Below are positions 5,738 through 32,273 of a stretch of 64,000 nt of DNA, in pieces. The DNA is taken from NCBI GenBank assembly GCA_014237915.1, contig JABACC010000006.1:9510-73509 (forward strand), given 5' to 3'. The position numbers and the translations under genes are program-made. Source of the DNA: Candidatus Paceibacter sp. (GTDB taxonomy: Bacteria > Patescibacteriota > Minisyncoccia > Phycocordibacterales > GCA-2747955). Within the stretch, counting starts at the first letter, position 1. Each line of letters opens with the position of its first letter. Below the pieces are notes generated by a model. That model was not told where the DNA came from. It saw only the letters and a list, made by a program, of their open reading frames with translations, and searched no databases.

Positions 5738-5883
5738 AGATGTATTATAAAGGAATTATTTTTAAAAAACCATTTTAAGTTTTAGCTCATTTAATAAATT
5801 ATTTATTAAATTTAAATATGATAAAAAAAAATAGTAAAAAATAGCTTGAAATGTGTTCTTGTATTTAATATAATGTAACTAAT

Positions 5884-10020: not shown

Positions 10021-11181
10021 ATGTTTAAAAATTTTTTATCTAATTTTAAATTCAATAAAAATCAAAATTATTTTCCTCCCTTAAAAAATGAAAAAGGAGA
10101 AAAAACAAAAATTTTTGTGGGGCTTTCTGGAGGAGTTGACTCTTCAGTTTCTGCGGCAATTTTGAAAAAAAAAAGTTTTGATGTGACAGGGGTTTTTATA
10201 AAAGTTTATCAGCCAGAATTTTTGGATTGCTCTTGGGCAGACGAGCGGGATGATGCAAAAAAAATATGTCTTAAATTAAATATTCCTTTTTTAGAACTTG
10301 ATTTAGAAAAAGAATATAAAAAATATATTTTTGACTATATGTTGGAAACTTACAAAAAAGGCCAAACTCCAAACCCCGATGTTTTTTGTAATAAATATAT
10401 AAAATTTGGCGCTTTTTTAGATTTTGCAGAAAAAAAAGGAGCAGATTTTGTGGCCACGGGGCATTATGCAACAAAAATTTACGATCAGAAAAAAGAAATA
10501 TTTTTTTTACAAAAATCAAAAGATACAAAAAAAGACCAAACTTATTTTTTATCTCAAATTTCTCAAAAACAACTTTCCAAAATTATTTTCCCAATTGGGA
10601 ATTTAGAAAAAAAAGATGTTCGCAAAAAAGCGAAAAAATTTAATCTTTTTACTGAAAATAAAAAAGATTCGCAAGGTCTTTGTTTTGTTGGAAAAATAAA
10701 AATGAGAGAATTTTTACAAGAATTTATAGAAAAAAAAGAAGGTGATGTCTTAGATTCTTCTGGAGAAAAAATTGGAGAACACGAAGGAGCAATTTTTTAC
10801 ACAATTGGCCAAAGGCACGGATTTTCAATTTCTGGAAAATTTAAAAAACCCGATCAGGAAAAACTTTTTGTTTTGGAAAAAAACAATGAAGAAAATATTT
10901 TAATTGTGGGGCCTTTTTCTGAGCTTAAAAAAATAGATAAAAATCTTGATAAAATTTATTTTAAAAACGAAATTTTTATTTCAGAAAATTTAAAAAAGGG
11001 TGACGAGATTTTGACCCAGATTCGTTATCGCGGAGAAAAAATTTATTCTGTTTTAGATTTTGATGAGTGCGGTTTTTTTGCCAAGGCAAAAAAACCGCAC
11101 TCATCAGTTTCATCTGGGCAAATAATTGCCTTTTATTCAAAAAATGGAAATTTTTGTCTTGGAAGTGCAATAATAATTTAA
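10021..11181 (+). CDS. mnmA: tRNA-specific 2-thiouridylase
   Basis: PP-loop 'GLSGGVDSSVSA'; C-terminal MnmA-like region. Start placed after the hairpin, at ATG 10021 rather than 9961. Confidence 0.85.
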   Translation: MFKNFLSNFKFNKNQNYFPPLKNEKGEKTKIFVGLSGGVDSSVSAAILKKKSFDVTGVFIKVYQPEFLDCSWADERDDAKKICLKLNIPFLELDLEKEYKKYIFDYMLETYKKGQTPNPDVFCNKYIKFGAFLDFAEKKGADFVATGHYATKIYDQKKEIFFLQKSKDTKKDQTYFLSQISQKQLSKIIFPIGNLEKKDVRKKAKKFNLFTENKKDSQGLCFVGKIKMREFLQEFIEKKEGDVLDSSGEKIGEHEGAIFYTIGQRHGFSISGKFKKPDQEKLFVLEKNNEENILIVGPFSELKKIDKNLDKIYFKNEIFISENLKKGDEILTQIRYRGEKIYSVLDFDECGFFAKAKKPHSSVSSGQIIAFYSKNGNFCLGSAIII

Positions 11182-11247
11182 TTTTTGTTAAGTTTTTAGA
11201 AAAGTAAATTTTTATGTTATAATTTTCTTACTTTTTTAAGTTTTTTT

Positions 11248-11300
11248 CAAAATTTAAATTTAAATTTAAAAACATCGCGGAAGTTGTGAAATGGTATCTC
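11248..11300 (+). repeat. 53-nt direct repeat: tRNA leader plus a degenerate 5' half of tRNA-fMet (non-functional copy)
   Basis: caaaatttaaatttaaatttaaaaacatcgcggaagttgtgaaatggtatctc versus 11351..11403. This copy lacks an anticodon arm and T arm. Confidence 0.7.
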
Positions 11301-11378
11301 CGACAGGAATCAGAGCGAATATTTATGAGCCGAAATCTCAAAAAACTTTTCAAAATTTAAATTTAAATTTAAAAACAT

Positions 11379-11449
11379 CGCGGAGTAGAGAAATGGTATC
11401 TCGGGAGGCTCATAACCTCCAGAATCTGGTTCGATTCCAGACTCCGCAA
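11379..11449 (+). tRNA. initiator-type tRNA-Met (anticodon CAU)
   Basis: Hand-folded. Acceptor cgcggag/ctccgca has a C1xA72 mismatch, the bacterial initiator hallmark. D stem gaga/tctc, anticodon stem ggagg/cctcc with loop ctCATaa, T arm tctgg-ttcgatt-ccaga. CCA is not encoded. Confidence 0.75.
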
Positions 11450-11450
11450 C

Positions 11451-12080
11451 ATGGTAATTTCAAAAACAGAAAAATATTCTTTCAAGGTTTCTTTTGGTGA
11501 TAAAACTATCGCCATAAACCCTGTTTCAAAAGAATCTAAAAATAAAGTTTCAAAATATGGATCAGATATTGCAATTTCAACTCTGCCCCATCCTGACTTT
11601 TCTGGATTTTCAGAAGTTTCTTATAAAGACAAAATTCCTTTTAAAATCTCGGGCCCCGGAGAATACGAAGTTTCAGAAATTTTTGTTAAAGGTTTTGGGA
11701 TTTCAGCAAAATATCAAGGAGAAGATTTTTTAGCTACGACTTACACAATAGCAATTGACGGAATAAATTTAACAATCCTTTCACCACTTTTAAACAAAGA
11801 AGATTTTTCCAACGAAGCTTACGAAGAATTTACGAATACTGATATTTTGATTTTGCCTTTAGGAGACGGAGATTTTTTAAATTCAAAAGAAGCAGTTTCC
11901 ATTGCCAAAAATTTCTCACCAAAAGCAATTATTCCTGCTGGATATTCTAAAAAAGAAGACTTGCAAGATTTTTTGAAAGAATTAGGAAAAGAAAATTTAA
12001 AAGAAGAAGAAAAACTGACTATCAAAAGAAGTGATTTAAAAGAAGACGAAGTAAAAGTTGTTCCATTGAAAATTGTTTAA
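11451..12080 (+). CDS. hypothetical protein, possibly a metallo-beta-lactamase-fold hydrolase-like protein
   Basis: 209 aa. The listed ATG is 1 nt after the tRNA, so the true start is uncertain. Weak resemblance only. Confidence 0.3.
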   Translation: MVISKTEKYSFKVSFGDKTIAINPVSKESKNKVSKYGSDIAISTLPHPDFSGFSEVSYKDKIPFKISGPGEYEVSEIFVKGFGISAKYQGEDFLATTYTIAIDGINLTILSPLLNKEDFSNEAYEEFTNTDILILPLGDGDFLNSKEAVSIAKNFSPKAIIPAGYSKKEDLQDFLKELGKENLKEEEKLTIKRSDLKEDEVKVVPLKIV

Positions 12081-14012: not shown

Positions 14013-14086
14013 AAATTTAATTTTAAATTGGAATTAAAAATAGTGTGGATTTTGCCTTCGGCAAAATCCACGGCAAAAAATAAAAT
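14013..14086. repeat. about 70-bp direct repeat copy 2 (terminator-like hairpin)
   Basis: See 12112..12183. Confidence 0.75.
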
Positions 14087-17748: not shown

Positions 17749-17776
17749 GTGGATTTTGCCGAAGGCAAAATCCACG
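17749..17776. terminator. stem-loop gtggattttgcc-gaag-gcaaaatccac (dispersed hairpin family)
   Basis: Perfect 12-bp stem with a tetraloop, flanked by T/A runs. The same stem recurs at seven sites in the window. Confidence 0.6.
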
Positions 17777-17801
17777 GCAAAAAATGTGATAAAATAAAAA
17801 A

Positions 17802-24116: not shown

Positions 24117-24332
<216 letters not shown>

Positions 24333-24511
24333 TAAGAAAGGAGGTGAAAATATCTTCCTGCTACTTAGCAGGTCGTATTTTTAAAAAGCGCACTGGGGGA
24401 TGCGCTTTTTTTACTATTTTTATTTTTTAGATTTTTAGAGAAAAATTTTAAAATGAGTGTGGGCGCCCGAAGGGCGCCCACAAAAATTTTAAAAATTTTC
24501 TAAAGTCTTTG

Positions 24512-24584
24512 TCCGTCTGGAAGGATTCGAACCTTCGACCGTCAGCTTAAAAGGCTGCTGCTCTACCAACTGAGCTACAGACGG
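24512..24584 (-). tRNA. tRNA-Lys (anticodon UUU)
   Basis: Reverse complement folds with acceptor ccgtctg/cagacgg, D arm gctc/gagc, anticodon loop cTTTtaa on stem cagc/gctg, T arm gaagg-ttcgaat-ccttc. Confidence 0.7.
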
Positions 24585-24639
24585 ATATTTATTTTTTAAA
24601 TTTCATTATTATTTTATGACGGTCTGACCGTCAGCTACA

Positions 24640-24694
24640 ATCGTCTTAATTAGGCTTTTGCTCTACCAACCAAAGCTACAGACGGATATTTATA
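24640..24694 (-). pseudogene. degenerate partial copy of the tRNA-Lys 5' half plus leader (tRNA remnant)
   Basis: tccgtctgtagctttggttggtagagcaaaagcc versus intact tccgtctgtagctcagttggtagagcagcagcc. No anticodon arm or T arm follows. It lies about 55 nt upstream of the intact gene. Confidence 0.6.
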
Positions 24695-24777
24695 ATTTTG
24701 AAATTTTATCAAAAAAATAATTTTTTTCAAGTTTGGATTTTGCGTAGCAAAATCCAAATTTTTAAAATTTTGCAAAA

Positions 24778-28112: not shown

Positions 28113-28635
28113 TAAAAAAAATATAATGTTCTTTTAGCGGGCCCCGCAAGGGCCCGCCAAAACACTCACACCTGTGAGTGTTTTTTATTAATTTTTTATT
28201 TTATAAAATTTTTTTTGGCGGATTTACCGAAGGCAAATCCGCCAAAAAATTTTAATAACAAGTTATCAAATTTTTTTATAAAAAAATATTGACTTTGTCT
28301 TCTAAATAAATATAATGGCTTCCACTTGTTTTTTTTATTTTTTTTATTTTGTAGTTTAAAAAATAAAAAGCAGGTTTGAACTTTGAAAATTAAATAGTCT
28401 TTTCAATCTCTAGAAAAATTTTTTAAATTTTTTTAGGGAAACAAAAGCAGGTAAAATTAAATTTTTACTGAACGAATACAAACTCAAACAAACAAACAAA
28501 CTCGTGTTTTTAAGATTTTTTTTAGAAAAAAATCTAGGTTTTTAAAACTCATAAAAACCGACCCAGAAAATTACTTTTTAAATTTTTTTAAAATTTAAAA
28601 AGTAAAAATTATATCTTTGAAATTTTCTAATGAAA

Positions 28636-31945
<3,310 letters not shown>

Positions 31946-32054
31946 TTTTCATTAGGAAATTTTAAGGATATAATTTTGTATTTTATTTTACAGAAAGTTA
32001 ATTCCTGTTTTTGAAAAGACTATTTAATTTTTAAGGTTATTAAAAATATTTTAT

Positions 32055-32160
32055 TCTGGTGCTTTGTCGGAGGGGTAACACCTGTTTCCATTCCGAACAC
32101 AGAAGTTAAGACCTCTAGAGCCGATGGTACTGCCTTGCGGGAGAGTAGGCAGGCGCCGGA
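32055..32160 (+). rRNA. rrf: 5S ribosomal RNA
   Basis: ccattccgaacacagaagttaag...gccgatggtactg...gagagtaggcaggcgcc. The ends pair with each other. Confidence 0.85.
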
Positions 32161-32273
32161 ATAAAGTATTTTTTTTTGTTTAAAATTTTTTTTTAAAAAA
32201 TTTTAAAACAAATTTTTAAAAAAATTTGTTTTTCTTTTTTAAAAATATATAATATAAAAATATTTAAAATTTT

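Follow-up and report, generated by a model that had tools for sequence, protein, structure and literature searches.

A tRNA-derived leader element ahead of the initiator tRNA gene of a Parcubacteria-type bacterium and its possible part in tRNA maturation

Introduction

Why is the initiator transfer RNA (tRNA) gene of a Parcubacteria-type bacterium preceded by an incomplete copy of its own 5' half? The question is raised by a stretch of 64,000 nucleotides (nt) from Candidatus Paceibacter sp. (contig JABACC010000006.1 of assembly GCA_014237915.1, positions 9,510 to 73,509, forward strand), which is referred to here in its entirety as the window. A preliminary description of this DNA considered that the duplication may be either the footprint of an element that had integrated at, or been excised from, the 5' region of a tRNA gene, or a duplicated promoter module. 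Here, the upstream copy is described as a pseudo-tRNA-fMet leader element (psi-fMet) and is compared with related elements found in metagenomes. We propose that psi-fMet could be a transcribed 5'-leader element of the initiator-tRNA gene that competes with the folding of the cloverleaf and thereby modulates maturation of the tRNA, a reading to which we assign a probability of roughly 45%.

The Met locus

The duplication of a leader together with the 5' part of the tRNA, described earlier as a 53-nt repeat from position 11248, is real, but the repeat starts at 11244 and covers about 57 nt with one indel. A repeat search showed that positions 11244-11281 are identical to 11347-11384 (38/38 nt, 100%) at a spacing of 103 nt, the shared 38 nt being the 32-nt leader and the initial 6 nt of the tRNA. 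A second block, 11282-11300 versus 11384-11402 (19 nt, 89%), is spaced by 102 nt, and the change from 103 to 102 thus marks an indel of 1 nt; the 103 nt reported previously between the two copies agrees with these values. This second block holds the D-loop and the 3' strand of the D-stem (GAAATGGTATCTC; 13 nt identical), and a search pattern for the shared block had 0.00 chance occurrences expected from shuffled sequences.

Leader copy 1 (TTTTCAAAATTTAAATTTAAATTTAAAAACAT; 11244..11275, forward strand) includes an 18-nt (TTTAAA)3 palindrome and is identical to leader copy 2 (11347..11378, forward strand), which the repeat search identified as the spacer ahead of the real tRNA. Identity over the 32 nt of the two leaders points to recent conversion or re-duplication. 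Repeats of this kind break short-read assemblies at tRNA loci, and in a separate Logan assembly of SRR11455651 one contig begins exactly at window position 11355. In an assembly graph that we take to have k = 31, this is the break expected after a 38-nt exact repeat ending at 11384, which argues against an assembly artefact and for the presence of the repeat in the reads.

As previously claimed, only the second copy continues into a complete initiator tRNA. ARAGORN and Rfam both call one tRNA-Met(CAT) at the locus, and not two, with its end placed at 11450 or 11449. This initiator tRNA-Met (11379..11449, forward strand, 58.9 bits) has its anticodon CAT at 11411-11413 and its discriminator A at 11449, and folds into a cloverleaf of -27 kcal/mol (z -3.1). 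The C1 x A72 mismatch is genuine, with C at 11379 and A at 11448 read directly from the sequence. The upstream copy (11276-11346), which has neither a 3' acceptor strand nor a T-arm, was not called as a tRNA by ARAGORN or by Rfam RF00005, even at E<=5. Upstream of both copies, at 11195..11223 on the forward strand, lies the best sigma-70-like promoter (TTTAGA-17-TATAAT with a TG extension, 10/12 matches), and neither a promoter-like nor a terminator-like site was found on the forward strand between 11244 and 11378.

A family of pseudo-tRNA leaders in related loci

The preliminary description had noted the same architecture at two loci of the window and had called it a pattern, and this pattern proved to extend far beyond them. 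A metagenome scan with the D-arm and anticodon pattern of the window tRNA-fMet returned 120 stretches, 108 of which have at least 130 nt of upstream sequence and serve as the base for the unit counts. Pseudo-tRNA units on the same strand precede tRNA-fMet in 47/108 of these loci (one unit in 39, two in 5 and three in 3), while analogous units were found at 13/75 tRNA-Asp genes and sporadically at tRNA-Lys, tRNA-Thr and tRNA-Arg. The units upstream of tRNA-fMet lie mostly 83-114 nt from the tRNA, downstream of the promoter, and were never called as a tRNA by ARAGORN or Rfam.

The psi-fMet leader family was defined from 24-30 metagenomic loci. Its units retain the acceptor 5' strand and the D-arm of the tRNA and carry a conserved hairpin in place of the remainder. 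After the D-arm they share the sequence C/G-(A)AAGGA-(C/A)UAAUAGC, followed by the hairpin (G/U)C-GA-AUAACC / loop / GGUUAU-GA-GC, both of which the tRNA lacks; a second unit type keeps CUCAUAACC, paired with GGUCGUGAG. The blocks AATAG, AATAACC and GGTTATGAG are invariant in the family alignments A1 and A2, and the hairpin signature combined with the D-arm is followed by a same-strand tRNA-fMet in 26/26 cases.

The part of the unit that does not derive from the tRNA has a median pairwise identity of 0.77, versus 0.56 in the shuffled control, with spacer, trailer and upstream flank all at baseline (0.57-0.62 versus 0.55-0.60). Since this part cannot be refreshed by conversion from the tRNA and yet is conserved, it appears to be under constraint. 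The derived features are also common to loci with different tRNA variants and unrelated flanks. Across loci, a promoter (TTGCAA-16/17-TATAAT) ends 11-15 or 30-34 nt ahead of the first unit, and loci without psi show the identical promoter geometry relative to the tRNA itself. No usable promoter was found in the spacer between unit and tRNA, where the score was 7.1 versus 8.5-8.8. The promoter before the first unit, with none usable in the spacer, would thus make the unit the 5' end of the tRNA precursor. At permissive thresholds, the family units gave no Rfam match to tRNA, T-box or group I intron models, and no description of such elements was found in Rfam 15 or in the searched full-text literature, a statement that holds for those collections. 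Overall, it is very probable that these units form a real, conserved, cis-linked leader family under constraint.

Judging from its sequence, the window copy appears to be a worn, diverged member of this family. A covariance model built without the window locates psi-fMet at 11276..11337 on the forward strand (24.2 bits, E 5e-6); the real window tRNA scores 29.7 bits under the same model because its 5' half is common to tRNA and psi. When the 40 nt after the window D-arm are aligned with locus L110, 28 identities (28/30) and a score of 30 are obtained, versus 15.8 +/- 2.6 in shuffles (1/1000 reach 30), and 0/660 genomic 40-mers reach 30. The conserved middle (AGGAAU..AGCGAAUA) and the antisense strand (G)GUUAUGAGC(C) are both recognizable in the window copy, which also has the position typical of the family, on the same strand as the tRNA, at a spacing of 103 nt and downstream of the promoter at 11195-11223.

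The window copy also shows wear. Of the acceptor 5' strand, 6/7 nt are kept, with a 1-nt insertion; the D-loop and the 3' strand of the D-stem are intact, and the 5' strand of the D-stem is mutated, UGUG replacing GAGA, so that together with the insertion the D-stem (GAGA-AAUGGUA-UCUC in the family) is broken. A remnant of the family hairpin follows, from which 13 alignment columns of the apex (AACC...GG) are deleted, and the apical helix AUAACC/GGUUAU is absent. On its own, the window psi-fMet has no stable fold (z +1.18).

Predicted pairing between leader and tRNA

The 3' strand of the family hairpin (GGUUAUGAGCC, an antisense strand also given as GGUUAUGAG) is antisense to the loop and stem of the tRNA anticodon arm. 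Its mean duplex energy is -20.5 kcal/mol with the anticodon arm versus -9.9 kcal/mol with its own 5' strand, and the duplex with the tRNA is the stronger of the two in 22/23 distinct loci (Wilcoxon p 5e-7). In the window copy, the antisense TTATGAGCC (11323..11331, forward strand) is the exact reverse complement of GGCTCATAA in the tRNA (11407-11415, the anticodon loop and 2 stem nt), with a duplex energy of -14.1 kcal/mol, versus -3.5 kcal/mol with the upstream strand of the element itself.

For 36 distinct psi precursors, leader and tRNA were folded as one molecule, and the difference in free energy (ddG) from leader and tRNA folded separately was calculated. An alternative psi:tRNA fold is the minimum free energy (MFE) structure of 22/36 precursors: the psi 5' strand takes up the 3' acceptor strand of the tRNA, the leader pairs with 9 or more nt of the anticodon arm, and the T-arm stays intact. 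The mean ddG of the psi precursors was -3.6 kcal/mol, reaching down to -12.3 kcal/mol, with predicted values of -12 and -9.5 at individual loci (L106 and L103, respectively). Among the controls, loci without psi gave a ddG of -0.33 and the alternative fold in 0/45, and shuffled leaders gave -0.9. In the window, the Lys precursor had a ddG of -4.3, and the Met precursor one of -1.8 with a short leader.

The following scheme is proposed. Psi-fMet would descend from an old tandem duplication of a short leader plus tRNA. With the operon promoter ahead of the element, psi, an AU-rich spacer and the tRNA would be transcribed as a single unit, in which the acceptor 5' strand would be present a second time, in the leader, together with a sequence antisense to the anticodon arm. 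Owing to this spare strand and antisense, the precursor could be pulled into a non-cloverleaf fold, and if formed in vivo such a precursor would be a poor or wrong substrate for ribonuclease P (RNase P). The weaker internal hairpin might mask the antisense during transcription. The element could thus have a regulatory effect by gating or tuning the yield and timing of initiator-tRNA maturation, and the window copy, worn as it seems, would still contribute an acceptor strand and a 9-nt antisense. In two reports, leader pairing or accessibility alters the processing of precursor tRNA by RNase P (PMC9433436, PMC7897497). Our confidence in competition as the mechanism, based on modelled energies, is moderate to low.

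Several observations weigh against this scheme. When the window Met precursor was folded with its full leader from the likely start, a normal cloverleaf with a ddG of 0 was obtained, because the palindromic (UUUAAA)3 sequences of the two leaders form a duplex that loops the element out; likewise, 12/36 precursors are predicted to fold normally, and the nearest-neighbour energies used ignore tertiary structure and modifications of the tRNA. The window copy was not recovered by a sequence-only hidden Markov model (nhmmer) of the non-tRNA part, whose best match was the reverse strand of the real anticodon arm. The upstream copy, although present in many more distant relatives and so not missing from all of them, is absent from the four sampled loci with the tRNA variants closest to that of the window.

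The hairpin is 88% paired and yet shows almost no covariation, with only 2 pairs doubly changed, no better than in shuffles; RNAalifold on alignment A1 recovers the D-stem only, and for the outer stem, a comparison of native with swapped 5'/3' partners gave no significant difference (p about 0.16). Given this scarcity of covariation, the constraint could lie on sequence or DNA rather than on RNA structure. Also, the acceptor strands of psi and tRNA are concordant at position 1 in 30/30 loci and at position 7 in 28/30, and since position 1 is unpaired in initiators, the 5' identity looks like gene conversion and not like selection for pairing. Changes in the psi acceptor strand at three loci (L088, L127 and L134) break pairing with the 3' strand. 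Finally, the element is absent from 56% of the sampled loci and is thus dispensable.

The tRNA-Lys locus and other tRNAs

At the tRNA-Lys locus of the window, on the reverse strand, positions 24698-24674 match 24597-24573 (25 nt, 92%) at a spacing of 101 nt, and 24670-24652 match 24570-24552 (19 nt, 89%) at 100 nt. The sole tRNA called there by ARAGORN and Rfam is tRNA-Lys (TTT) at 24511..24584 (reverse strand, 73.5 bits), which bears out the earlier statement that the Met architecture recurs; no tRNA was called by either in the upstream copy (24611-24685), even at E<=5 with RF00005. In the pseudo-tRNA-Lys leader element (24617..24685, reverse strand), the acceptor 5' strand and D-arm are followed by an anticodon region that is altered and by a hairpin; a T-arm is absent. 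In this hairpin, UGACGGUC-AGA-CCGUCA, the 3' strand is antisense to positions ~41-48 of tRNA-Lys. The element folds at -20 kcal/mol (z -2.1), and the residual tRNA similarity of its 3' part was reached by 43/1000 shuffles. A promoter-like site (TTGAAA-16-TAAAAT with TG, 10/12 matches) lies upstream of the pseudo-copy at 24703..24730 on the reverse strand, no terminator was found between the copy and tRNA-Lys, and a terminator-like hairpin of 11 pairs, 9 of them G-C, follows the tRNA at 24458..24482 (reverse strand). The Lys element shares the plan of psi-fMet as an independent analogue of it. No such copy was found upstream of the remaining three tRNAs of the window.

In 13/75 tRNA-Asp genes from the same metagenomic loci, an analogous unit (psi-Asp) lies 90-101 nt upstream (e.g., L128 at 5769-5862, L112, L142 and L113). 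Psi-Asp keeps the acceptor strand and the D-stem, its D-loop is changed to CAAUUAGAAUAUAGC and its anticodon loop to a short hairpin, UCGCC/GGCGA, and it constitutes a second conserved pseudo-tRNA leader family. Single cases of an upstream unit were observed for tRNA-Thr (L179) and tRNA-Arg (L184). The common plan is a tRNA 5' part followed by a stable hairpin. The Met and Lys units have a clear antisense to the tRNA body, in the Asp units it is short, and the Arg unit has none.

These observations allow a more general, and more doubtful, proposal, namely that a tRNA-derived pro-sequence, with an extra acceptor strand and an antisense against the body of the tRNA, before single-copy tRNA genes of Parcubacteria-type bacteria (initiator Met and Asp, sporadically Lys, Thr and Arg) might switch between a self-masked hairpin and a leader:tRNA duplex, and so gate RNase P or hold the new tRNA inactive. 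If true, tRNA supply would be under feedback from a self-targeting device made of RNA only, and this class of autoregulation has no earlier description; the chance that the element represents a new mode of tRNA autoregulation seems fair to us. The level of initiator tRNA sets the capacity for translation initiation, and the ultra-small genomes of the Candidate Phyla Radiation (CPR) have single-copy tRNA genes and few regulatory proteins; there, an RNA-only device that works on the tRNA's own precursor would be a new kind of control. Psi-fMet is also a candidate structured RNA family absent from Rfam and the searched literature, and annotators of these genomes should not by default take a partial copy ahead of a tRNA gene for an integration scar.

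Alternative explanations

Psi-fMet might instead be a non-functional relic, that is, a decaying tandem duplicate of leader and tRNA whose 5' part is kept by gene conversion or unequal recombination. This explanation is rather unlikely and applies most strongly to the window's own degenerate copy, with its broken D-stem, its 13-nt apex deletion, its lack of a stable fold and a 3' half without residual tRNA similarity (equalled by 891/1000 shuffles). Concerted evolution, visible in the concordance at position 1 (30/30) and in the window leader (38/38 identical), fits a relic, as do the little covariation and the absence of the element in 56% of loci. So does the difference in unit number between loci with 100% identical flanks (three units in L101 versus two in L143). 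A second pair with flanks 92% identical (L092 with two units versus L200 with one) shows the same, and such differences between near-identical strains could reflect either real array dynamics or the collapse of repeats in assembly. Similarity of leaders within a locus was considered as evidence of recent duplication and rejected, as the leaders of most single-unit loci resemble each other no more than leaders taken from different loci do; the only exceptions are the window, L110, L175 and the multi-unit arrays.

On the other hand, an identity of 0.77 is retained in the segment that the tRNA cannot renew (AATAGCGCGAATAACC...GGTTATGAGC), next to spacers at the random baseline, and the same derived features recur across different tRNA variants with unrelated flanks. 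The antisense stays a perfect complement of the tRNA, whereas its partner in the element's own hairpin has a conserved imperfection. Although recombination readily removes a direct repeat of 50 nt, many lineages have kept the element.

A product acting in trans is the next, clearly unlikely, explanation. The leader released by RNase P would here be a stable small RNA, serving as a sponge for tRNA-fMet through its 7-14 nt of antisense or diverting, as a decoy, a protein or toxin whose recognition site is the acceptor/D-arm or the anticodon region of the initiator tRNA. An intact D-arm and hairpin would stabilise a released leader, the sequence UUAUGAG complements the whole 7-nt anticodon loop, and at some loci a 7-nt loop closed by AAGG/CCUU is possible. 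Arrays of 1-3 copies would give a stoichiometry of 1:1 to 3:1 with the tRNA. Regulators derived from the spacers of tRNA operons are known, such as 3'ETS-leuZ in Escherichia coli, which counts in favour of a trans-acting product. However, the element is strictly cis-linked to tRNA-fMet and never occurs alone (26/26), and in most loci the antisense lies within a stem and not in a loop. Type A units no longer carry the CAU anticodon mimic (CGAAUAA) and would therefore be poor decoys for anticodon-directed enzymes.

The suggestion of a duplicated promoter module, in which each unit would bring its own promoter and an array would raise transcription of the initiator tRNA, is very unlikely. The exact duplication of the window leader, a short AYAT motif ahead of both element and tRNA in most loci and TATAAT-like hexamers in a few spacers would speak for it. 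Nevertheless, good -35/-10 pairs of the sigma-70 kind occur only upstream of the first unit. Matches in the spacer are weaker and unusable, their -10 ending 3-6 nt from the tRNA +1 and so too close for a usable start, and in the window itself 11244-11378 is devoid of a promoter-like site on the forward strand. Across loci, the promoter-proximal leader is variable and the tRNA-like part conserved, the opposite of what a promoter module predicts.

The footprint of a mobile element that integrated into, or was excised from, the 5' part of the tRNA gene is hardly tenable. In its favour, tRNA genes are common integration sites often marked by partial tRNA copies (PMC9897764), and tRNA-Lys has a tyrosine recombinase gene 1.4 kb away. 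However, it is the 3' part that integrases duplicate, with kilobases between the copies, while here the 5' part is duplicated about 100 nt away with nothing mobile in between (none of 47 loci has a mobile element there) and with housekeeping neighbours. The recombinase has an XerC/D domain pair and is found beyond the 3' end of tRNA-Lys, whereas the duplicate is on the other side. No integrase is found near tRNA-fMet, and conserved non-tRNA sequence is common to dozens of unrelated contigs.

Genomic context and other features

The window is part of an 87-kb metagenome scaffold (ENA), and the host is a Parcubacteria-type CPR bacterium whose nearest sampled proteins are ~54% identical and labelled Nomurabacteria, Paceibacteria and similar. 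The neighbours of the Met locus are MnmA, a metallo-beta-lactamase (MBL)-fold hydrolase, an ABC transporter and SmpB, and those of the Lys locus are an RluB-like pseudouridine synthase, a HolA-like protein and the XerC/D-type recombinase, all housekeeping functions. Synteny with relatives is not kept around the Met locus, and in relatives found through MnmA (<=53% identity) or the downstream MBL-fold protein (<=54%) no tRNA-fMet was present at the orthologous place.

Upstream of the Met locus, at 11061-11106, a perfect 22+22-nt palindrome (TGATGAGTGCGGTTTTTTTGCC / GGCAAAAAAACCGCACTCATCA) lies within the 3' end of the mnmA reading frame and scores as a terminator-like hairpin inside coding sequence. 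On the other side (11449-11453), 1 nt separates the discriminator of tRNA-fMet (11449) from the ATG (11451) of the MBL-fold hydrolase gene, and 3' processing of the tRNA would leave the messenger RNA of this gene essentially leaderless.

In related loci (e.g., L106, L110, L095, L097 and L128), tRNA-fMet is directly followed by a conserved trailer, UUCGG-CAAGUGACAUGCC-AAAA-AUGUC-...-CCGAA, with a covarying stem (GGCA/UGCC, GGUA/UACC, GGCU/AGCC). The loop GACAU could pair with AUGUC further downstream in what resembles a pseudoknot, and the loop GUGACA complements the anticodon loop of the downstream-encoded tRNA-Asp. The motif is present in 45/98 distinct trailers, has no match in Rfam and is absent from the window.

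Elsewhere in the window, 14047-14075, 17751-17782 and 24723-24767 belong to one family of palindromic hairpins (GGATTTTGCC-GAAG-GGCAAAATCC and variants), intergenic and near tRNA genes, which look like shared terminator-type repeats. Downstream of tRNA-Lys, in an otherwise AT-rich spacer, a GC-rich triplet repeat at 24117-24332 encodes a run of 13 alanines in a short open reading frame (leucines on the opposite strand). The 23S ribosomal RNA (rRNA) at 28632-32161 measures 3321 nt against a model of 2925 positions, pointing to insertions, and is followed by 5S rRNA; no 16S rRNA was found within the window.

Comparison with known systems

Some known systems share little with psi-fMet. TIGR arrays of CPR bacteria and phages are long box C/D dual-spacer arrays located by a Nop-domain Tas gene (PMC12045711), while psi arrays have only 1-3 units ending in tRNA-fMet, no variable spacers and, in the window neighbourhood, no Tas-type gene. 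A group I intron remnant (RF00028) was likewise rejected, as no Intron_gpI match was found near any unit and the element is followed by a 30-40 nt AU-rich spacer and then a complete tRNA; a U.G-closed pairing in type B units is not diagnostic of such introns. The tRNA fragments left by genomic islands and prophages (PMC9897764) resemble psi-fMet as partial copies in direct orientation near an intact tRNA that are not called as a standard tRNA. They consist, however, of the 3' part, with an integrase and kilobases between the copies, whereas psi is a 5' part about 100 nt away without mobile genes, and an att-site fragment was dismissed for this locus, with its 5' part duplicated, copies 101-103 nt apart and no integrase between or beside them.

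Pseudo-tRNAs left behind by tandem duplication, such as those from duplication and random loss in organelle genomes, are closer to psi-fMet in their unit-length spacing (~100 nt), in the partial copy beside an intact gene and in concerted evolution. Nevertheless, such relics decay and are private to lineages, while the psi hairpin is conserved across lineages with saturated flanks, and, unlike them, the psi element always lies between promoter and tRNA.

T-box leaders also present a codon with flanks complementary to the anticodon loop (AUG in UUAUGAG) in a 5' leader with mutually exclusive pairings. They precede aminoacyl-tRNA synthetase or amino-acid genes, possess a Stem I and an antiterminator with the T-box bulge, and sense charging in trans. 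The psi leader, on the other hand, precedes its own source tRNA gene, with no terminator or antiterminator found. A T-box riboswitch (RF00230) was rejected, given no Rfam match at E<=5, no terminator-like hairpin before the tRNA and a tRNA as the downstream gene, and for lack of a U-tract the hairpin was not accepted as an intrinsic terminator or attenuator.

Control of RNase P by the leader, through natural pairing of the leader with the 3'RCCA (PMC9433436) or a designed RNase P riboswitch (PMC7897497), is similar in that leader structure alters processing; these cases involve a few nucleotides by the cleavage site or a synthetic aptamer. Psi-fMet would differ as a natural element of ~70 nt situated 30-40 nt upstream, with a duplicated acceptor strand and an antisense to the anticodon arm, whose effect is a predicted one. 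The E. coli 3'ETS-leuZ is a functional RNA that comes from a transcribed spacer of a tRNA precursor, is released by processing and sponges unrelated small RNAs, and is not tRNA-like. Psi-fMet, by comparison, is a 5' spacer derived from a tRNA and has no evident target besides that tRNA. Considering these likenesses and differences, we rate it as a tRNA-derived transcribed-spacer or leader element that would act most like a leader-encoded antisense or sequestor on the tRNA precursor.

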